DNA of 64,000 nt from assembly GCA_963704905.1 (NCBI GenBank), contig CAVPHZ010000002.1:75011-139010 (forward strand), in the 5' to 3' direction. Shown piece after piece: positions 19,564 to 53,043 of the stretch. Origin of the DNA: Candidatus Chisholmbacteria bacterium (lineage in GTDB: Bacteria; Patescibacteriota; Microgenomatia; UBA1400; Chisholmbacteraceae). The number at the start of each line of letters is the position of its first letter. Position 1 is the stretch's first letter. The translations under genes and the position numbers were made by a program. The notes beneath the pieces were generated by a model that saw only the letters and a list, made by a program, of their open reading frames with translations, was not told where the DNA came from and ran no database searches.

Positions 19564-21127
19564 TTCCCACGCGCTAGATATTATTACCGGTTTTTTACTG
19601 GTATTTATTCCATTGTATCCAAAGTGGCCGTTGGCAGATGTGTTGCCAGGCTACATTGTTAGACTGAGATTAGAAGATCTCATTATCGCAGTGGTTGTCA
19701 TGTTCTGGCTAATTCAGCTAGCTCGAAAAAAAGTCAGTCTTAAAAAGAACCCTCTTACCATTCCAATCATGTTATATCTTAGTATCGGATTCATTTCATC
19801 GCTATCTGCGTTATTTATTACAAAAACCGTACCACTAGAGGGATCGCATGTCGCAAAACTCTTTCTCCACTGGGCCAGAAGAGTTGAATACATGTCTCTC
19901 GCATTTATTTTTTTCTCAGCAGTAAAGACATCAAAACAACTAAGAAGAATTGTCATAATCCTCTCTGTCGTAGTGGTTCTCACTTCTCTATACGGATTTG
20001 GCCAAAAGTACATGCAGTGGCCGGTATATTCAACCATGAATAGAGAATTCGCAAAGGGATGGCGTCTGGTTCTTACTGAGCATGCCCGGGTACCCTCAAC
20101 TTTTGCCGGGCATTACGATTTTGCTGCCTACTCGGTAATTGTGCTCTCAATATTGGTGAGTCTATTGTTTGCAGGTAGTAAAAAAAAGAGCGCAAAAATT
20201 CTTTTAGTAATGGTCTTTCTCGCTGGATTTGCTTCACTTCTACTGACCGCTTCAAGAACATCATTTATTGCATATCTAGCTGCAATCACAATAGTCGCAT
20301 ATTTATTCGCTATAAAAAAAGGATTTCTCTGGAGCCTATCACGTTGGTCTGCGATCGTCACTGTGAGTTTGGTTGGGATGCTTATGTTTGGTGATCTTTC
20401 AGAGAGATTTGCCCACGTCCTCAGGATTAATCAATTGAAGGAATATGTAAATACTGAACTTATCAGCTTGCTGAAAAGCGGGCAATCATCAAAACCACAG
20501 TTCAACCTCAATCAAGATCTCTCGCTGGTATATACCGATACAGACCAACCGCCCATAAGACCCGGAAATTTGCCTTTTGATGTGTTCGAACAAATTCCAG
20601 AAGCATTTCCGGAAGCAACACTTTCAGCAACTTCAGCAGCCGATCTAGAACGGATTGCATCACTTGCCGGTAAGCCTCGTAACTACTCGCCAGCAGCTTT
20701 CACATTTGGACTCTCATCAGCAATTCGATTTGATGCGCTGTGGCCCAGAGCGATTGCCGGTTTCAAAAGAAACCCTCTCCTTGGATCTGGCTACTCAACC
20801 TTGTTGAAAACCCAGCAGACAGAATTCACAGAAGCTGAGTCAACAGACAATGATTTTCTTAGAGCTTTAGGAGAAACGGGTATCTTAGGGTTTATAAGTT
20901 TCTTCGGAATTATGGCTTTTGCATTGTATAAAGTATGGACACAGAAACAAAAAATAAAAAGTTCATTCGACTATGCAATCATAGCTGGGATATCTGGTGC
21001 AATTATTGGTATGTTGGTAAACGGACTGTATATTGATGTTTTTGAGGCTTCAAAGGTTGCCTATACATTTTGGGCTCTAATCGGATTATTATTCGCAACA
21101 CTTAATATATCAAAGAGTAATAGATAA
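19529..21127 (+). CDS. O-antigen ligase / O-antigen polymerase-like (Wzy_C) membrane protein
   Basis: About 532 aa and polytopic. A large loop carries RFDALWPRAIAGFKRNPLLGSGY and NDFLRALGETGILGF, resembling the Wzy_C R...W...PxxGxG and H..L..L.E.G motifs. The start was chosen at the internal Met; the track gives 19499. Confidence 0.5.
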   Translation: MKRIKKLSTWLDSHALDIITGFLLVFIPLYPKWPLADVLPGYIVRLRLEDLIIAVVVMFWLIQLARKKVSLKKNPLTIPIMLYLSIGFISSLSALFITKTVPLEGSHVAKLFLHWARRVEYMSLAFIFFSAVKTSKQLRRIVIILSVVVVLTSLYGFGQKYMQWPVYSTMNREFAKGWRLVLTEHARVPSTFAGHYDFAAYSVIVLSILVSLLFAGSKKKSAKILLVMVFLAGFASLLLTASRTSFIAYLAAITIVAYLFAIKKGFLWSLSRWSAIVTVSLVGMLMFGDLSERFAHVLRINQLKEYVNTELISLLKSGQSSKPQFNLNQDLSLVYTDTDQPPIRPGNLPFDVFEQIPEAFPEATLSATSAADLERIASLAGKPRNYSPAAFTFGLSSAIRFDALWPRAIAGFKRNPLLGSGYSTLLKTQQTEFTEAESTDNDFLRALGETGILGFISFFGIMAFALYKVWTQKQKIKSSFDYAIIAGISGAIIGMLVNGLYIDVFEASKVAYTFWALIGLLFATLNISKSNR

Positions 21128-31285: not shown

Positions 31286-32641
31286 ATGGCAAATACGCTA
31301 GACAAGGTTATTTCACTCGCCAAACGAAGAGGTTTTGTATTTCCTGGATCTGAAATATATGGCGGACTAGCTAACACCTACGACTATGGACCGCTTGGAT
31401 CCCAGATGCTAAAAAACCTACGCGATTGGTGGTGGGAGCGATTTGTCGAAAGTCGAGCCAACGTCTTTCCTCTTGAAACCAGCATCATCATGAGTCCGCG
31501 AGTTTGGGAGGCTGCCGGTCACACAGAAAGTTTTACCGACGCACTCATCGATTGTCGAGCTTGTCATACACGAACTCGGGCCGATCATCTGATTGAAAGC
31601 AAGCTTAAAAATGTCAAGGTTGAAGGTAAGAGTGTACACGAGCTTGATGAGCTTATCAAAAACACCAACTAAAGTGCCCCAACTGCGGTAACTTTAATTG
31701 GACAAAAGCCCGAGAGTTTAATCTACTTTTTGAGACTAACATTGGCATCGTTCCTGAAAATCAATCGCGAGCTTACTTACGCGGCGAGACAGCTCAGGGG
31801 ATGTTCGTCGACTTCAAGCAAGTCCTAGACAGCATGCGACCCACCTTGCCATTCGGTATCGCTCAATCAGGCAAAGCCTTTCGTAATGAAATTACCAAGG
31901 GCAAGTTCACCTTCCGAACGTTGGAGTTTGATCTGGCTGAATTTGAGTATTTTGTTCGGGAAAATGAATGGGAAAAATGGTTCGAGTATTGGAAGAAAGA
32001 AGTTGAAGCCTGGGCAAAAGATCTTGGGGTAAAACAGGAAAAATTCCGTTGGCGACCTCACACTAAAGATGAACTTAGCCATTATTCAAAACACACCGAA
32101 GATCTAGAATATAAATATCCTTTTGGTTTTAAGGAATGGTTTGCGGTTGCCTACAGAACCGACTTTGACCTCAAAAATCACGCCCAACAATCCGGACAAG
32201 ATCTGCACTTCACCGATCATCACACTGGAGATAAATTTATTCCCCATGTCATTGAACCAACCTTTGGTTTAAGTCGAAGCATGGTCACCTTTCTCATCGA
32301 TGCCTATCACGAAGAAAAAGACAGAGTTGTTCTCAGGCTCCATCCCCGCATCGCACCAATTAAAGTCGCTGTCTTTCCGCTCTTAAAGAATAAAGAGAAG
32401 CTCGTCAAAAAAGCACAAACTGTTTCATCAATTGTCTAGTCACCTTCCAACAGCTTGGGACGATCGAGGAAATATCGGTAAACGCTATTTCAGCCAGGAT
32501 GAAATTGGCACTCCTTGGTGTGTGACTGTTGACTTTGACACGCTCAAAAATAACTCTGTTACAGTTCGAGATCGAGATTCAACGAAGCAGAACAGGATTA
32601 AAATCAGCAAATTGGAGGATTATTTTAATGAAAAACTCTAA
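31286..32641 (+). CDS. glyQS: Glycine--tRNA ligase (alpha2-type GlyRS) interrupted by two frameshifts (possible pseudogene or assembly error)
   Basis: GlyRS homology continues across three ORF-track pieces in frames 2, 1 and 2: GFVFPGSEIYGGLANTYDYGPLG... / ...CPNCGN...RGETAQGMFVDFK... / ...DDRGNIGKRY..DEIGTPWCVTVDF. The first shift is in the A5 run at 31658-31662; one extra A restores ..IKKHQLKCPNCG. The second shift is near 32425-32440. Confidence 0.8.
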
Positions 32642-33392
32642 ACTCATCATTGTCATCCTCTCAGTCATAGTTCTACTTGTGGGGGCCGTGATGGGTGTTA
32701 AATTTCTGAGAGGAAACTCATCAGAGTCACAAACTGAACAGTTAAACAAAAAAATAGAGCCTGTAAATCAGATTCCAGTCACTGAACGGCCATTTGCACA
32801 AATACTACCTCGCAGCGATGGCAGAGAAGTAACTATTATTGTCGATCAATACCAAACTTCCAGCGAAGTGGAATATGAACTCGAATATCAAGCAGGTACT
32901 TTACTTCAAGGAGCTTTTGGAACAATTGATTTCACTACAGAGAACCCGCCAGTAAAAAGAAACATCTTCTTGGGTCATGTAGTGCAGGCGGAAAATGCAG
33001 TTATCACGAAGATGTGAATGGAGGTTCCTTGGTACTTCGATACAAGAGCTCAACGACTACAAAGCTTAAAGGTGAGTGGAATTTTCAAACAATGAAGAAC
33101 AAAAAGGTCGTTTTTCATCTCGAGATGCAAAATTCACCTTTAATGTCGGAGAAAAAGGACTTCCATCATCAACCTTTGCAGTTGTGGCTCAGACAATGGG
33201 TCCGCCAGGTGTAGTCGATGGAGAAATTATTGCTGGACCATATCTTGTCAGTTTTCCCGATGGTGTAAGTCCAACGGGGAAAGAATTGCAGTTACGCTAC
33301 GTTTAAATGAATTAAATGCTGATGCAGTATTGCTCGGATGGTCTGAAGATGGTTGGGTGGAGTATGAGAGTGAAGTAACGACCAAATCTTAA
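32628..33392 (+). CDS. Hypothetical secreted/membrane-anchored protein, apparently frameshifted about 3 times
   Basis: A GGAGGA ribosome-binding site precedes the ATG at 32628, followed by a signal-anchor. Protein-like sequence continues through frames 3, 2, 1 and 3 (ORF-track pieces 32529.., 33014.., 33076.., then 33309-33392). Homopolymer runs sit near the junctions. Confidence 0.3.
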
Positions 33393-33495
33393 GCGCCACG
33401 GTGAACAAAGTAACGACCTTTGTAGCAGTGAGTAGTGTTCAATAGTCTCTTCAATCTTTTTCAGCGAAATACAAAAAAATACTGAAAACTAGCCC

Positions 33496-33567
33496 TTGAC
33501 AAACGGGATCAAAATAATCTTCAATGGTAATAGTGGTGAAAAGTGGTGAATAAACCTATATAAATAG
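33496..33567 (+). promoter_or_regulatory. Candidate dcw-cluster promoter with MraZ-box direct repeats
   Basis: TTGACA at 33496-33501. Three 10-bp-phased repeats caATGGTAAt / AGTGGTGAAa / AGTGGTGAAt lie at 33521-33550, with TATATAAAT at 33556-33564. GTGG(T/G) repeats with 10-bp spacing are the known MraZ operator arrangement. The site is about 40 bp upstream of the mraZ remnant. Confidence 0.45.
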
Positions 33568-33605
33568 TAGAACACATATCTCCTGCCCAGATTGGTAGGC
33601 AATAG

Positions 33606-34015
33606 TGTTCATAGGAATTTATTATCACACATTAGAATCAAAGGGCAGATTGGCAATTCCCGCCAAGTTTCGGACACAAATTGACAAAGGGAGTGTTGTA
33701 ACAAGGGGCCTTGATGGATGTCTTTTCCTCTTCCCTGCCAAGAATGGGAAAGACTCATACAAAAGCTCCATCATAGCCCCTTGACACAAAAGGACGCTCG
33801 AGAATTTGTTCGGTTCATGACTCATCATGCTGCGGAAGTTCAATTTGACAAGTCAGGGCAGAACCAAGATACCATAACATCTTCAAGAATTTGCAGGCTT
33901 GACAAAAGAAGTGGTCATAGCCGGAACATGACAAGAGTTGAAATTTGGGATAAGCGGATTTACCAACTATAGAGACGAATTGGAAAAGACTGGGGAGAAG
34001 TTAGCCGACGTATGA
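33606..34015 (+). pseudogene. mraZ: mraZ pseudogene (transcriptional regulator MraZ, multiple frameshifts plus an in-frame TAA)
   Basis: MraZ homology runs through frame 3 (MFIGIYYHTLESKGRLAIPAKFR...GCLFLFPAK), frame 1 (EWERLIQKL...AAEVQFDKSGQ), frame 2 (QGRTKIP-TAA-HLQEFAGLTKEVVIAG), frame 1 (NMTRVEIWDK) and frame 2 (YRDELEKTGEKLADV*). The TAA at 33875-33877 sits in frame between two conserved segments. Confidence 0.75.
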
Positions 34016-34098
34016 CCTGAATTAGGAATTTAATCTTGAAGAAACACATCTTGGTGGGATTAATATAATCTATTAAACGGACAGAGAAAGGAGCTAAC

Positions 34099-34269
34099 AT
34101 GGCGATGTTCAACGGTGACGAGATGCGCCGCCGGCTTGAAGAAAACCTTCGCCGCTTGAACTTCAAGCTCAAATTCAAGCGCAATCGCAGGAAGTTCAAG
34201 AACCACTCCAAGCTCAACCAATGGTCAGCAGCAATAAAATCAGATATCACGCACCTGTGTTGACTGAAG
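34099..34269 (+). CDS. Putative small basic protein (56 aa) in a locally GC-rich palindrome-containing island
   Basis: An AAGGAG ribosome-binding site lies 7 nt upstream of the ATG. Predicted product: MAMFNGDEMRRRLEENLRRLNFKLKFKRNRRKFKNHSKLNQWSAAIKSDITHLC. Local GC is about 50% (my count) against about 37% around it. Too short to appear in the supplied ORF track. Confidence 0.2.
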
Positions 34270-35135
34270 TTATTGAGGGTTTAGGATGTCGAGCTGGGAG
34301 AAGATATATAGACGCGACGGTTGGTGATGGAGGACACTCAAAAGAAATCATACTGAGGGGAGGAAGTGCTTGGAATTGATAGGGAGTAGATCAGATAAAG
34401 AGCCAAAAAACGACTTAGAAGAGTTGTCGAACAGGTTGGTAAAACAAACTTGATCAAACATTTAAAAACCCGAAACTGGTACACGGAAACTTTACCGATA
34501 TAAAACAAATTGCTCAAAAGCATGACTTTTTCACGCCAACTGGCATCCTGTTTGATCTCGGTGTATCATCTTATCAGCTTGACATCGATAACGGGTTTAA
34601 GTTTTCAAAGAAATCACGATCTCGACATGCGTCTGGATAAACAGACAAACTTACAGCAAAAAAATTATCAATTCTTATTCAGAGGAGGAGATTATATGAA
34701 CTTTTTACTCGAAATGCTCAGGAAAAGTTGGCTAGGCCAATTAGTAAAGCTATTGTCAATGCCCGTCGTCTGATGAAAATAAATACAACCAATCATCTTG
34801 CGAGAATCGTAGCCTCAGTTGCACTGCGAAAAAACTCAAAACTCCATCCAGCAACAAAAGTATTTCTCGCCTTGAGAATAGAAGTTAATCATGAAATTGA
34901 GAATCTTAAGCTCGGAATTGAAAACGCAATAAAGTTACTCAAACCAAATGGGAGACTCGCAGTCATAAGTTTCCATGAAACAGAGGACAGACTCGTAAAA
35001 CAATTAGTACGGAAAGCAAACAGAAGCGGACAGCTCAAAATAATCACAAAAAAACCACTAACATCATCGAGAAGTGAGAGAGAGGTAAATCCAAGAAGTA
35101 GAAGTGCAAAATTACGCATCGCCGAGAAAATATGA
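34221..35135 (+). pseudogene. rsmH: rsmH (16S rRNA m4C1402 methyltransferase) pseudogene: N-terminal two-thirds disrupted by about 5 frameshifts, C-terminal 135 codons intact
   Basis: RsmH-homologous segments occur in order but in alternating frames: MVSSNKIRYHAPVLLTEVIEG...YIDATVGDGGHS (f3), VLGIDRE (f1), SDKEPKNDLEELSNRL (f2), KLVHGNFTDI...GILFDLGVSSYQLD (f3), LDMRLD (f1), then LTAKK...ARPISKAIVNARR...FHETEDRLVK...RSAKLRIAEK (f3, the intact ORF 34728-35135). Confidence 0.75.
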
Positions 35136-35437
35136 CAGACCAGCATTCAAACCGATCACAAAAAAGGCTCATCTCATTTATGCTATTGTTTGTTGTTTTG
35201 CTGATTACAGCAAATCTTGTCGTCAGCAATACTCTTGCCACCACCGGTGAGCAGCTACGAAGTCTCCATACTAGGAGATCGAATCTCGAAAACCAAAACG
35301 ATCAACTCAAACAGCTCATTGTGAAGTACAGTACACTTGAAACAGTAGAAGAAAGAGCCTTTGAGTTAGGCATGGGAAAAGTAGAAGTGACGCGTAATCT
35401 CCAGCTTAACACCCCTGTAGCAATGAAACAATTATGA
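35132..35437 (+). CDS. ftsL: Cell division protein FtsL-like
   Basis: 101 aa with a single TM (LISFMLLFVVLLITANLVV) followed by a coiled-coil region (EQLRSLHTRRSNLENQNDQLKQLIVKY). It sits between rsmH and ftsI. Confidence 0.6.
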   Translation: MTDQHSNRSQKRLISFMLLFVVLLITANLVVSNTLATTGEQLRSLHTRRSNLENQNDQLKQLIVKYSTLETVEERAFELGMGKVEVTRNLQLNTPVAMKQL

Positions 35438-37177
35438 CTCTGAAGAGGTTAAACCTAACGGTCGGCATCTTCCTTGTTTTTGTTGGATTGATTATTGCCA
35501 GATTATTTTATTGGCAAGTCATCAGTGCTGAGGAATTAGCAGCAATTGGAGAAAGCCAGCATATCAGCAAGGTCGAAATACCCTCCAAACGTGGAGAGAT
35601 TCGAACAGCTGATGGTTTTCCTCTAGCCGCCAACCAGGAAACCTTTCTCATATTCGCATATTTACCACAACTTGAACAGTCCTCATCTGAGATCGTTGAT
35701 CAACTCATTCCAATTATTGGAAATAAAATCATTGAAAAAGATGCAACTTCCTCTGCCGAGAAAAGAGCAGTACTGAACCTGAAAGCAAGAGAAGTGCTCA
35801 AAGAAAAACTAGATAAAGACAGCGTGTCTTGGGTACCGCTTGTAAATAATGCTGATATCACTGAGAAAAAAGCAGTCGAAGCGCTTGATATTAGTGGAAT
35901 AGGTATTGAGCCATCATTTACCCGCGATTACCCAGAAGCGTCTATGGCAGCAAATATCTTGGGGTTTGTAGGGCGCGACACAGCCGGGAATCCTAAGGGG
36001 TACTTTGGGCTTGAAGGGTATTATGATCTTGAGCTCAGGGGGAGATCAGGGATGCTTCGGCAAGAAAAAGACGCTACGGGAAAACCAATTCTCATCGGAC
36101 GATACAATGAGCTCGAAGTCAAAGAAGGAAGGCATTTAGTTCTACACATTGATCGGGCGATACAGAAAAACGTAGAGGAAAAACTCAACAGATGGGCTGA
36201 GAAAATACGGAGCAAAGAGTGGCGAAGTAGTCATTATGGAGCCCAAAACTGGAAAGGTAACCGCAATAGCCTCATTACCAGGATATCATCCAGAGAGTTT
36301 CAGCGATTATGATCCATCGCTGTATAAAAATCCAGTGATATCTGAGTCGTACGAGCCTGGTTCTACGTTTAAAGTTTTAACCATGTCAGCGGCACTTGAC
36401 TCCGGAGCAGTAAATGTTGAAACCGAGTGCACGATCTGTGCCGGTCCGGTCAATATTGGTGCGTATACAATACGGACTTGGAACGATGAATACCATCCCA
36501 GTGCAACGATGAAAGAAGTTATTCAGTACTCCGATAACGTCGGGATGGTATTTGTTTCAAGGCAACTTGGAAAAGAAAAACTCTATGAGTATCTAACGAA
36601 TTTTGGAATCGGAAAAAAAACAGGTATAGACCTTGAAGAAGAATCAACCACCCCTATCCGAGATCTTGATGACTGGAAAGAAATCGATCTCGCTACAGCC
36701 TCATTTGGCCAAGGAGTGGCCGTTACGGGAATCCAAATGACTAGAGCAGTCGCGGCAATTGCAAATGATGGTCTTTTACCAACCCCTCAGATAGTTGACC
36801 AAGTGATAGGAGAAAATCGCTTAGATGTTAATCCACATGAACTAAAACGGGTGTTAAAAAAAACCACCGCAAGAGCAATGACGGATCTTATGGTAAACGC
36901 GGTAGACAACGGAGAATCAAAGTGGGCAAAGCCGAAAGGATTTAAAATTGCTGGAAAAACTGGAACAGCTCAAATTCCAGTTGCTGGTCATTATGATACT
37001 GATAAAACCATAGCCAGCTTCATTGGCTTTGCTCCGGCGGACAATCCAAAATTTGTGATGTTGGTAAAGCTTAGGGAGCCAGAGACTTCGCCTTGGGGCT
37101 CAGAGACAGCGGCCCCTCTTTGGTTTTCTATTGCGCAAGACTTATTTTATTACTATGGCATTCAACCTGAGGAATAA
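35434..37177 (+). CDS. ftsI: Peptidoglycan D,D-transpeptidase FtsI / PBP2-type (class B PBP), carrying one homopolymer frameshift
   Basis: N-terminal TM plus PBP dimerisation domain, then the transpeptidase STFK (..EPGSTFKVLT), SDN (YSDNVG) and KTG (KTGTAQ) motifs. The two ORF-track pieces (35434-36312, 36236-37177) join if the A4 run at 36202-36205 is A3, giving AEKYGAKSGEVVIMEPKTG. Confidence 0.8.
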
Positions 37178-49409: not shown

Positions 49410-50755
49410 CACCTTTTAATCAGTTCAAACATGATTTTGAAGGCAGAAGAGTACTGATATTTGGTCTCGGACTCCTTGGAAGAGGTGTAAGTGTTGCAAA
49501 ACTCTTCTGCGAAATTGGCTGTACAGTTACAGTAACGGATAAGAAAAACTCTACTCAATTAAGAACATCACTTCAAAATCTCAGCAAGTACAACATTCGA
49601 TACACGCTAGGTGAACACAAAAGAGAGGACATCGATCAATCAGAAGTGATCATCCGAAACCCTGATGTTGTATGGCATCATCCTCTATTAGAGAGAGCTA
49701 GGAAGAAAAACATTCCTATAAATATGGACACGTCACTATTTGCGAAGTATTTTCCGGGATTGTTAATCGGGATTACTGGAACTAGAGGGAAAACCACAAC
49801 CACTGTTCTCATTTATGAGATGCTAAAGTCGACATATAAAAACGAGGTTATATTAGCTGGAAATGCAACTGAAAAAGCAAATTGTGCCTTACTCAAAGAA
49901 ACTACAATCAAGACCATTGCTGTTGCCGAATTATCTTCTTGGGAGTTAGAAGGTTTTGAAGCGGAGCAGATCAGTCCGAGTATCTCCATCGTCACCAATA
50001 TTTATCGCGATCATCTAGATCATCATAGGAGTTTTAGTGAATATGTAAGGCGAAAACAAGCGATTTTCTCAAATCAAAAGAAAAACGACACCATCATTTT
50101 AAACAGAAATAACAAATGGACTAAAGACATGTCAAAAAAAGTGAATTCAAATATCATCTGGTTTGATGAACAAACCCTACCTGAAAACTGGCAATTAAAA
50201 CTCATAGGATTGCATAACCGAGAAAATGCTTCAGCAGCCTATTGTGTTGGAAAGAAATTGAAAGTAAAAATAAGCTCAATAAGAAATGTTTTTGAACAAT
50301 TCAAAGGCGTTCCTCACAGACTTGAATCTATTGGATATGTAAACAAAGTAGAATTCATAAACGATACAACATCAACAACACCGATAGCGACTATTAAAGC
50401 TCTTCAGTCCATGTCAAATCCAACCATTCTGCTGGTTGGTGGGAATACGAAAAATCTTCCACTGAGAGAACTCACCTCCCAACTAGGAAAAAGAACGAAA
50501 GCAATTGCACTATTACGAGGAAGCGGATCAGCAGAGCTGTACGAACTCATTAAAAGCGATAACAACATTACAATTATTTCAGAAGATCGTGATTTTGATG
50601 AAACAGTATGGACTGCTTTCAAGCACGCCGACCCTGGAGATTCTATACTGCTGAGTCCTGGTTTTACTTCTTTTTCAGAATTCAATAATATCTTTGAAAG
50701 AGGTAAGAGATTTAGAGAAGTTGTAAAAAAACTAAGATCAACGCATGGTAAATAA
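49406..50755 (+). CDS. murD: UDP-N-acetylmuramoylalanine--D-glutamate ligase MurD
   Basis: Rossmann-like N-terminus (VLIFGLGLLGRGV), GITGTRGKTTTT P-loop and the Mur ligase domains. ATGA overlap with murI. Confidence 0.8.
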   Translation: MTPFNQFKHDFEGRRVLIFGLGLLGRGVSVAKLFCEIGCTVTVTDKKNSTQLRTSLQNLSKYNIRYTLGEHKREDIDQSEVIIRNPDVVWHHPLLERARKKNIPINMDTSLFAKYFPGLLIGITGTRGKTTTTVLIYEMLKSTYKNEVILAGNATEKANCALLKETTIKTIAVAELSSWELEGFEAEQISPSISIVTNIYRDHLDHHRSFSEYVRRKQAIFSNQKKNDTIILNRNNKWTKDMSKKVNSNIIWFDEQTLPENWQLKLIGLHNRENASAAYCVGKKLKVKISSIRNVFEQFKGVPHRLESIGYVNKVEFINDTTSTTPIATIKALQSMSNPTILLVGGNTKNLPLRELTSQLGKRTKAIALLRGSGSAELYELIKSDNNITIISEDRDFDETVWTAFKHADPGDSILLSPGFTSFSEFNNIFERGKRFREVVKKLRSTHGK

Positions 50756-51883
50756 AAAAACGAAAAGAAAAAAACGGCAAAAAGCGAAAACAATCCGCCT
50801 ACGCTTTAAAGGGAGAGAGGCAAAAACTGATGTTATCCTGGTAGCTGTCGTTGCAGCACTTTCATTATTCGGAATACTAATAGTCTATGATGCATCTGTA
50901 ATAGAAGCCTATCGTAGTTTTTCAGATAAATTTTTCTTTGTTAAGCAGCAGTTGATCTGGACTGCAATTGGTTTAACCCTGGCAGCGGTGATGTCCGTTA
51001 TACCGTATCATGTGTACAAAAAACTCGGATTTTGGGCTTTTGCAGCATCTCTATTACTTTTGTTTTTTGTATTGCTTCCCGGCATAGGGTCCAAGACTTT
51101 TGGAGCGAGAAGATGGATTGCGTTAGGCAGTCTTTCCCTTCAACCAGCCGAGTTTACAAAACTAACTCTGATTATGTATCTCGCTTCATTCTTAGAAAAA
51201 AAGGTCGCATCCTTCAATTTCTGGTAATACTTGGTGTAGTAGCAGGGCTTATCATGCTTCAGCCAGATTTGGGAACTACTGTGGTGATGAGTAGCATAGC
51301 GGCGGGCATGTACTTCATTTCTGGCGCACCCATACTCAGCTTTACACTCCTTGGATTTGGGGGGATCGTCACTGGAGCCATGTTTATACTCACCTCACCA
51401 TATCGTAGAGCCAGAGTAGCCACATTTCTCAATCCTACAGAAGATCCGCTCGGTGCATCCTACCACATTCGACAGGTGCTCATTGCCCTAGGCTCAGGTG
51501 GATTGTTCGGGTTGGGTATTGGAAAATCCAGGCAAAAATACGAGTATATTCCTGCGGCGACAACCGACTCAATATTTGCAATCATTGCTGAAGAAATTGG
51601 CTTTTTTGGATCGATTGTAATAATTTCCCTATTCACGATATTCATTTTTCGGGCCTTTAAGATTGCAAAACAGGCACCGGATCAATTTACTCAACTGCTT
51701 GCGGGTGGAGTAGCGGTTTGGATAAGCAGCCAAACTGTGCTGAATCTTGCAACCATGGTCGCACTTGTACCATTAACTGGTGTTCCTCTTCCATTCATTT
51801 CATATGGAGGGTCTTCAACGGTAGCAAACCTCGCTGGTGTCGGTTTGCTCTTAAGTGTGAGTCGTTATGCAAAAAAAAGATAG
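50745..51883 (+). CDS. ftsW: Peptidoglycan glycosyltransferase FtsW (SEDS family), carrying one homopolymer frameshift
   Basis: SEDS signatures (QPAEFTKL, LQPDLGT, PLPFISYGGSS). The ORF-track pieces 50745-51227 and 51032-51883 join as ..LASFLEKKGRILQFLVILG.. if the A7 run at 51196-51202 is A8. Confidence 0.75.
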
Positions 51884-53043
51884 AAAGAAACACAAAACAT
51901 ATAAAGTACTTATTACTGGGGGTCATCTCACACCTGCAATTGCGGTTATTGAACATTTGCGAAAACAGCACAATCAGTGGGAGGTGGTTTTTATAGGCAG
52001 AAAATCAGCTACTGAGAGAAGTAGCGCACCTTCAAAAGAATCATTGGAAATTCCAAAGTGGGGAATACCATTTTATTCAATACAGGCAGGGAAAATCCCT
52101 CGTCACGTAAATCTTGAAACGGTCACTGCAAGCTTAAAAATACCAATCGGCATTACGCAAGCATTTTTGAAGGTGAGAAATATACAACCTGATGTGGTAC
52201 TAAGTTTTGGTGGGTATGTTGCAGTCCCGGTGGCGATCGCGGCAAAAATATTACGTATCCCAATAGTGACGCATGAGCAAACTACAGCCAAAGGACTGGG
52301 AACAGCACTCATTGAACACCTTGCAGCAAAAATCGCTATTTCTTGGGATATCAGCAAGAAAGATTTTCGACATAAGGTAGTTCTTACTGGTAATCCAATA
52401 CGCGAAACCTTTTTTGCAAAAAATCATAAAATATCTTCGCTTCCATCACCAACACTTCCAACGATCTATATCACCGGCGGTAATCTTGGATCACAAGCAA
52501 TAAATCTTGCAGTACTAAATGCGCTTAAGGTGCTTACAAAACATTTCATGATCATTCACCAGAGCGGTACAGGAAAAGCAGGAGCTGATAGTAAACAGCT
52601 TACTCTACTAAGAGAAGAGCTACCTATCAATCAACAGAATAATTATCTCGTTCGACCTTGGTTTGAAGATATAGAGGTTGCTTGGCTGATGAGACATGCA
52701 AGGCTTATTGTATCCCGTGCCGGAGCCAACAGTATTACCGAGATAGCACTGAGTGGAACCCCCGCAATTCTTATCCCTCTACCAAAAGCTGGTCGAAATG
52801 AGCAATTATGGAATGCCCAAATGCTAAAAGATACTGGTATTGCTGAGATTCTTCCTCAGGATTCACTTGAGCAAAGATTCTCTGCTCAAGCTGATTAGAA
52901 AAATGAACACCAATTATCAATTATACAAACAACACAGCTCCAGAGCTCAATCTCTTGTAAGAAGAGATTCAGCAGCTGCGATTGGACAACTGTTACTCGA
53001 TGCGATTCAAGAAAAGAAGACCAAAACCACAACCAATAACTAA
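51867..53043 (+). CDS. murG: Undecaprenyldiphospho-muramoylpentapeptide beta-N-acetylglucosaminyltransferase MurG (C-terminus probably continues past a frameshift near 52885-52900)
   Basis: ITGGHLTPAIAV is the MurG G-loop. The intact ORF ends at 52898, only 16 residues after the conserved GIA; the +1 frame continues with MurG-like C-terminal helix sequence (..RRDSAAAIGQLLLDAI..) to 53043. Confidence 0.7.

Follow-up and report, generated by a model that had tools for sequence, protein, structure and literature searches.

A cluster of broken genes around glyS, mraZ and rsmH in a Patescibacteria contig is best explained by local consensus errors

Introduction

Clusters of genuine pseudogenes are known from reductive evolution, for example in Mycobacterium leprae and in recent endosymbionts. 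The locus described here resembles such clusters in its multiple frameshifts and stops within recognisable genes that keep their syntenic order. Real decay, however, comes with many substitutions, leaves essential single-copy genes untouched and reappears in separate assemblies, and the present locus does none of this. Errors in which indels fragment genes are, on the other hand, well described as a general problem of long-read and hybrid assemblies (PMC9262707, PMC12007338), and they share with this locus truncated and frameshifted ORFs, pieces that are collinear with intact homologues, a dominance of indels and a disappearance of the lesions in an independent assembly. Unlike those errors, the lesions studied here form one 3-kb concentration instead of being genome-wide and have no significant homopolymer association, which together suggest a locally under-supported segment rather than a systematic base-calling bias.

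The window analysed is a 64-kb stretch of a deposited contig (508,777 bp) from a Microgenomates-group (Patescibacteria) bacterium. Its part from 31.66 to 34.70 kb is interpreted, with a probability of roughly 0.92, as a local deletion-biased stretch of poor consensus and not as a trait of the bacterium, because all the affected genes are intact in a separate assembly of the same strain.

Methods

Gene identities and breaks were taken from an ORF listing, Pfam and frameshift-aware protein-to-DNA alignment against intact homologues. The twin assembly consisted of two Logan contigs (21,903 and 12,173 bp) from run ERR12037370, for which a literature search returned no paper, and was compared with the window through its gene table and by exact-match look-ups, while the base-level nature of each lesion was deduced from lengths and homologues.

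Results and discussion

A dense patch of 3,030 bases (31,662-34,691; Table 1) carries at least 17 frameshifts and two in-frame stops, as found by the ORF listing, Pfam and the frameshift-aware alignments, so that the lesion cluster over glyS, a hypothetical gene, mraZ and rsmH proposed in an earlier sequence-only reading is confirmed. That reading placed 14 of 17 lesions in the cluster, a count which is too low, as 17 of the 20 frameshifts detected fall within 4.7% of the window (binomial P ~3e-20). The two frameshifts claimed for glyS (found at ~31662 and ~32417) and the four of mraZ with an in-frame TAA were recovered, together with an additional TGA that makes both in-frame stops of the patch belong to MraZ, while the hypothetical gene and rsmH proved to contain four and seven frameshifts instead of about three and about five. 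The only three lesions found in the rest of the 64 kb are located in ftsI/PBP (~36190), ftsW (~51200) and murG (~52870), the first of which lies beyond the limit originally drawn for the disturbed zone. Peptide segments across the patch show normal similarity to homologues and are collinear with them, in the right order as had been stated. Three overlapping ORF pairs (6493/7199, 12398/13224 and 39742/40377) were considered as frameshifts and rejected, since Pfam and the gene table of the twin identify them as separate intact genes.

Table 1. Coordinates of the genes and sequence elements discussed (window numbering)
Feature	Position	Strand	Remarks
glyS, glycine--tRNA ligase (class II dimeric GlyRS)	31286..32641	+	3 ORF pieces, 2 frameshifts
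conserved hypothetical, membrane-anchored, motif GSCSAGGKCSYHE	32628..33445	+	by alignment to L001 orthologue
direct repeat AATAGTGGTG / AAAAGTGGTG, 10-nt period	33529..33548	+	upstream of mraZ; candidate MraZ operator
mraZ	33605..34033	+	4 frameshifts (~33740, ~33850, ~33929, ~33964); stops TAA 33875, TGA 34013
short ORF between mraZ and rsmH	34099..34263	+	54 aa here, 46 aa in twin
rsmH, 16S rRNA m4C1402 methyltransferase	34221..35135	+	7 frameshifts
ftsL	35180..35437	+	intact, identical to twin (exact look-up); 3' boundary of dense patch
ftsI/PBP	35434..37177	+	in two parts, owing to one additional base near 36186-36191 (~36190)
ftsW	50745..51883	+	split at A7 run 51196-51202 (~51200)
murG	51867..53043	+	343 aa here, 391 aa in twin

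The proteins flanking the patch are exact matches in the twin, namely a DUF4012 protein (667 aa), RecO (181 aa), FtsL (85 aa), MurE (424 aa), a 417-aa nucleotidyltransferase and MurD (449 aa), which amount to 2,223 residues with zero differences, a comparison still compatible with synonymous differences in the DNA. The broken genes are unbroken there, encoding GlyRS (452 aa), the hypothetical protein (273 aa), MraZ (143 aa), RsmH (308 aa) and FtsI/PBP (580 aa), and a minimal repair at each junction of the window sequence restores exactly the twin lengths of the first four. Eight genes in the 10 kb upstream of the patch all show a coordinate offset of 20,705 between twin and window, which then changes by -3 in GlyRS, -4 in the hypothetical gene, -1 in the spacer, -6 from mraZ to the start of rsmH and -12 in rsmH (net -26 nt over 31.3-35.1 kb), followed by +1 in ftsI and a constant value beyond it. 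Frame-breaking indels thus stand against an otherwise identical independent assembly, and the strain's real genome very probably has unbroken copies of glyS, the hypothetical gene, mraZ, rsmH and ftsI. No gene of the twin corresponds to the 212-aa GlyRS fragment of the window (exact look-up), and a 36-mer from ftsL gave no match in a scan of metagenome contigs. The twin does share the ftsW frameshift with its out-of-frame tail, which indicates that its assembly does not simply hide frameshifts.

The glyS gene lacks one base near the A5 run at 31658-31662 and two near the CAAA at 32416-32419, in agreement with the 3 nt by which the gene is shorter in the window than in the twin, and changing A5 to A6 and A3 to A5 yields the 452-aa protein. 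Among 123 alignment columns with a conservation of 95% or more, this repaired GlyRS departs from the conserved residue at four, and 20% of 80 intact homologues depart as much. The enzyme is unbroken in all 80 relatives retrieved, and tblastn found only one GlyRS locus within the 64-kb window. Nine repaired GlyRS variants had no exact match in a protein collection from which, judging by the RecO control, the Logan copy is absent. The downstream hypothetical gene contains four single-base deletions (~32970, ~33093, ~33296 and ~33391), the filling of which with 4 x 1 nt gives 273 aa, and its orthologues P0156, P0166 and P0215 are intact.

Both spacers have lost bases as well, judged from the coordinate offsets. 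The spacer upstream of mraZ (33446-33604) is 1 nt shorter than that of the twin and includes the repeat core AGTGGTGA, which occurs twice, 10 nt apart, at 33531-33548. The same core occurs twice with the same spacing in the relative L001 (11785-11802), and we take the repeat to be a putative MraZ operator by its likeness to MraZ-box repeats; the retained operator noted earlier is therefore present, as a candidate. The mraZ gene is net 3 nt shorter than its counterpart and can be stitched into 143 aa, about three further bases are missing from 34034-34220, and the short ORF between mraZ and rsmH has no Pfam match. Aligned with a 308-aa homologue (P0125), rsmH shows frameshifts at 34365, 34387, 34398, 34468, 34584, 34651 and 34691 and is stitched into 308 aa. 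The gene falls 12 nt short of its length in the twin, and for this all of its lesions must be deletions (five of 2 nt and two of 1 nt, or more of 1 nt). The stitched RsmH departs at two of 53 conserved columns, as do 21% of 104 homologues, so that the repaired GlyRS and RsmH both fall within the range of intact homologues at conserved residues and carry indels without substitution decay. A chimeric query of 259 aa joining pieces of MraZ, the hypothetical protein and RsmH found no near-identical protein among those of about 0.55-1.75 times its length, the best matches reaching 76%, 69% and 66% identity.

Real pseudogenisation was the other alternative put forward beside a low-quality assembly patch. 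The deposited contig would then represent a strain variant with decayed glyS, hypothetical gene, mraZ and rsmH, which coexists with or descends from the intact twin strain and obtains its GlyRS function from elsewhere; we regard this as extremely improbable. The lesions do exist in the deposited sequence, model bacteria can do without mraZ and rsmH, and another lesion of the window, that of ftsW, can be called genuine insofar as it is reproducible. However, about 20 indels in 3 kb, nearly all of them deletions, stand against zero amino-acid changes in the 2,223 flanking residues, and natural decay consists of far more substitutions than indels, while no excess of substitutions was found at conserved residues and only two stop-creating substitutions, both in MraZ, were present. 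The damage also reaches an essential single-copy GlyRS, the spacers and ftsI and is thus not limited to dispensable genes, and data from the same strain do not reproduce it, the genes being intact in the Logan twin. The assembly-patch alternative is strongly supported, that of mraZ/rsmH decay spilling into an aminoacyl-tRNA synthetase is not, and with the genes intact in the twin the need for a second GlyRS drops away. An alternative genetic code or programmed recoding was also rejected for the patch, as the approximately 20 shifts run in both directions and share no motif, and as the reading frames of the twin are simply open.

A homopolymer run of at least 3 nt lies within 5 nt of 13 of the 17 lesions, against a background of 63% (P=0.19), with A5 at 31658, A5 at 34463 and G3 at 32971 as the obvious run-associated cases. 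The absence of significant enrichment speaks against classic systematic homopolymer error and calls for an explanation by low coverage. It also counts in favour of another artefact, a mis-join or the consensus collapse of two co-occurring strain haplotypes, in which conflicting alignments rather than simple low coverage would have produced spurious deletions during polishing. Strain mixtures are frequent in metagenome assemblies, and the patch is narrowly confined, its flanks being clean. In contrast, the unbroken 21.9-kb contig of the Logan assembly through this region makes a repeat or a strong divergence of strains less likely, at least in that sample, and the collinear peptide segments of normal similarity, the ordinary GC content and the lack of any sign of a junction or foreign sequence also speak against this second artefact, which we regard as very unlikely.

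Under the preferred reading of a consensus-error patch, the window would have lost about 26-28 bases as scattered deletions of 1-2 nt, and would besides have gained one or two insertions and no fewer than two substitutions. The error density is about 0.9% over the patch and about 1.5-2% over mraZ-rsmH. The patch is probably poorly supported long-read sequence, which may derive from a part of a metagenome assembly, long-read or hybrid, that was backed by one or few error-prone reads, or alternatively from a gap filled with long reads beyond the reach of short-read polishing, so that random deletion-biased read errors would not have been averaged out. It is scarcely credible, by comparison, that a sub-population or a single DNA molecule truly carries the deletions, as the outcome of a localised burst that removed bases at about 20 sites within 3 kb. 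Such a burst might arise, for instance, when a DNA break is repaired by synthesis that is error-prone and liable to -1 frameshifts, with the long-read assembly following that molecule. If true, glyS, mraZ and rsmH would have been inactivated by a natural mutation shower in a dead or dependent Patescibacteria cell.

Outside the dense patch, ftsI/PBP is 1 nt longer in the window and a single gene in the twin, and one extra base near 52870 moves the C-terminus of murG into the frame of the ORF at 52840-53043. The ftsW lesion is common to both assemblies, as the exact 160-aa truncated product is encoded in the twin too. The split lies within TTA GAA AAA AAG GTC (51192-51206), where an in-phase slippery heptamer of the X_XXY_YYZ type (A_AAA_AAG, 51196-51202, zero frame) coincides with the frame change, as in dnaX-type -1 frameshifting or poly(A) slippage, and a -1 slip would lead to a full-length FtsW of 379 aa collinear with its homologues. 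Unlike a dnaX-type site, it showed no upstream Shine-Dalgarno-like element and no stable downstream structure (fold z-score +0.9), and it is not conserved, four relatives (L038, L037, L027 and L011) having an unbroken ftsW without the poly-A run. The loss of 1 nt from an A8 run, whether real or shared, may be all that lies behind the lesion. The sequence of the slippage site is TTAGAAAAAAAGGTC, and the peptide predicted across the -1 junction is ...ASFLEKKGRILQF...

Implications

Searching independent assemblies for exact copies of the flanking proteins and comparing gene-coordinate offsets provides a cheap test of artefact versus decay that works without reads. Here it assigned 20 lesions to the one assembly and showed a single lesion (ftsW) to be reproducible. 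Gene fragments from the patch have already been deposited as separate proteins (P0001), and the patch, if uncorrected, would skew the number of pseudogenes, completeness scores, conclusions on metabolism and essential genes, and protein databases. Read literally, the contig describes a Microgenomates-group bacterium seemingly without GlyRS, MraZ, RsmH and FtsI; the significance of the locus lies in curation and annotation and not in biology, as an artefact to repair.

Lesion cluster in the dcw region

The window comes from a Patescibacteria genome of the Microgenomates group and spans a division/cell-wall (dcw) region, in which lesions were located by a frameshift-aware dynamic programme aligning intact homologues to the window DNA. 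Of 20 frameshifts, 17 fall within 4.7% of the window (P ~3e-20), in a patch (31,662–34,691) running from the glycine--tRNA ligase (GlyRS) gene to rsmH, and only three lesions were found outside it in 64 kb (see table). The cluster proposed by the sequence-only reading is thus real, and slightly larger than described (17 frameshifts against 14 frame-disrupting lesions claimed): the two in glyS recur as stated, the hypothetical gene carries four instead of about three, and rsmH seven instead of about five, while the four mraZ frameshifts and the in-frame TAA are joined by a second stop, TGA. P0125, an intact 308-aa homologue, served best as guide for RsmH; against it, what look like two in-frame stops at about 34387 and 34396 turn out to be frameshifts. 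The remaining overlapping ORF pairs in the window were rejected as frameshifts, being separate genes.

Features and lesions of the window (frameshift positions approximate)
Gene	Position	Strand	Frameshifts	In-frame stops	Remark
Class II glycine--tRNA ligase	First gene in 31,286–35,135	+	2 (~31662, ~32417)	None	Pfam on fragments
Conserved hypothetical membrane protein	Second, 32628–33445	+	4 (~32970, ~33093, ~33296, ~33391)	None	
mraZ	Third	+	4 (~33740, ~33850, ~33929, ~33964)	TAA 33875, TGA 34013	After 10-nt-period direct repeat (AGTGGTGA x2)
Short ORF	Fourth, between mraZ and rsmH	+			
rsmH	Fifth, last gene in 31,286–35,135	+	7 (~34365, ~34387, ~34398, ~34468, ~34584, ~34651, ~34691)	None	
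ftsI/PBP	35434–37177		~36190		Outside patch
ftsW	50745–51883		~51200		Outside patch
murG	51867–53043		~52870		Outside patch

The identities assigned to the gene fragments of the patch are supported by Pfam. Comparison with a sister genome, as the earlier reading had advised, showed that the best syntenic relative, the Candidatus Chisholmbacteria MAG L001 (GlyRS core identity 77%), has the identical gene order with each gene unbroken. In both, a pair of AGTGGTGA boxes spaced 10 nt apart precedes mraZ (window 33529–33548; L001 11785–11802), and this pair is probably the MraZ operator of the Chisholmbacteria lineage, presumably akin to the AAAGTG[T/G] boxes known from Mollicutes. The hypothetical protein, which matches no Pfam family, is conserved among Microgenomates relatives (273–281 aa), both in location and in sequence, with a hydrophobic helix at the N-terminus and an invariant GSCSAGGKCSYHE[DN]VNGG motif.

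An intact twin of the locus

Exact-sequence look-up of window proteins identified the same locus, treated as the same strain, in an independently built Logan assembly (run ERR12037370), on two contigs of 21,903 and 12,173 bp, which were read through gene tables and exact matches; a metagenome scan with an ftsL 36-mer gave no match, and a literature search on the run yielded nothing. The DUF4012 protein (667 aa), RecO (181), FtsL (85), MurE (424), nucleotidyltransferase (417) and MurD (449) are letter-for-letter the same in this twin, and zero differences occur over the 2,223 residues that flank the patch on either side. In the RecO–FtsL interval, the twin encodes single unbroken genes for GlyRS (452 aa), the hypothetical protein (273), MraZ (143), a 46-aa ORF and RsmH (308), followed past FtsL by one PBP gene of 580 aa; for the 212-aa GlyRS fragment of the window, the twin has no entry.

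Coordinates of twin and window are offset by 20,705 at eight consecutive genes in the 10 kb upstream, which therefore hold no net indel. Relative to the twin, the window is shorter by 3 nt in GlyRS, 4 nt in the hypothetical gene, 1 nt in the spacer ahead of mraZ, 6 nt between the starts of mraZ and rsmH and 12 nt in rsmH, and longer by 1 nt in ftsI, from where the offset stays at 20,680 through MurE and three further genes. As five rsmH junctions skip 1 nt and two skip 2 nt, the net loss of 12 nt implies that each rsmH lesion must be a deletion. Minimal base addition at every junction restores proteins of exactly 452, 273, 143 and 308 aa, the twin lengths, where MraZ requires the ~33850 junction to be a 1-nt insertion, consistent with homologues that have no extra residue there. 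The locally low-quality assembly patch, one of two explanations offered by the sequence-only reading, is thus upheld by the intact twin, the confinement of net missing bases to the patch and the repaired lengths.

Lesions outside the patch

The ftsI/PBP gene is split into ORFs of 292 and 313 aa by one extra base at ~36186–36191, 1.5 kb past the end of the interval reported for the cluster; the low-quality zone therefore trails off into ftsI. The murG product is 343 aa in the window and 391 aa in the twin, whose murG end is that of an alternative-frame ORF at 53043; the window therefore has one extra base near CTTGAGCAAAGATTC, an isolated insertion error.

The ftsW frameshift, in contrast to the patch lesions, is exactly reproduced in the twin, where the truncated product has the same 160 residues, out-of-frame tail included, and the twin assembly is therefore not simply smoothing frameshifts away. 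The gene is split into 160 aa and 209/283 aa at TTA GAA AAA AAG GTC (junction 51192–51206), which places the heptamer A_AAA_AAG, the classic dnaX-type -1 slippery site, in the zero frame. Full-length FtsW of 379 aa (...ASFLEKK|GRILQF...) is predicted to result from a slip of -1 or from slippage in the transcript (A7->A8). No stimulatory structure was found at the junction, and the unbroken ftsW genes of relatives have no poly-A at the corresponding site. This could be a genuine split or rescued essential gene, or a homopolymer miscall common to both assemblies.

Decay or assembly error

In natural decay, substitutions far outnumber indels. The patch contains ~20 indels, almost all deletions, with at most a few substitutions, and the flanking proteins show none. 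In repaired GlyRS, 4 of the 123 columns with at least 95% conservation in 80 homologues deviate from the consensus, and 20% of these homologues, all intact, deviate at least as often; for RsmH the figure is 2 of 53 such columns, and 21% of 104 homologues are equally bad. GlyRS is essential, and is unbroken in all 80 relatives retrieved though hit here. Real pseudogenisation, the other explanation first offered, is thus very improbable given the intact twin with identical flanks, the scarcity of substitutions, the ftsW control and the retention of GlyRS. The lesions are neither reproduced nor accompanied by substitutional decay, and the patch does not belong among real pseudogene clusters; it is almost certainly an assembly artefact and no real feature.

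Error density is ~0.9% over 3 kb, rising to 1.5–2% over mraZ–rsmH and falling to one lesion in ftsI, and the errors are skewed to deletions. Thirteen of the 17 patch lesions lie near a run of at least three identical bases, against a 63% background (P = 0.19), an association that is not significant and that points away from systematic homopolymer error of the kind persisting at high coverage. Deletion bias, local density and the lack of a significant homopolymer link fit a segment whose consensus may be backed by just one long read or a handful, or a gap that may have been closed with long reads and passed over by short-read polishing, and we infer one of these as the cause; artefactual strain collapse is an alternative of low probability. 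Gene-fragmenting indels in long-read assemblies are documented in PMC9262707 and PMC12007338, and the patch is an instance of this well-known kind, unusual solely in being so local. The deposited record needs polishing, and the fragment proteins from the patch are spurious, yet already in public protein sets (e.g. P0001, a window gene fragment deposited as a separate protein).
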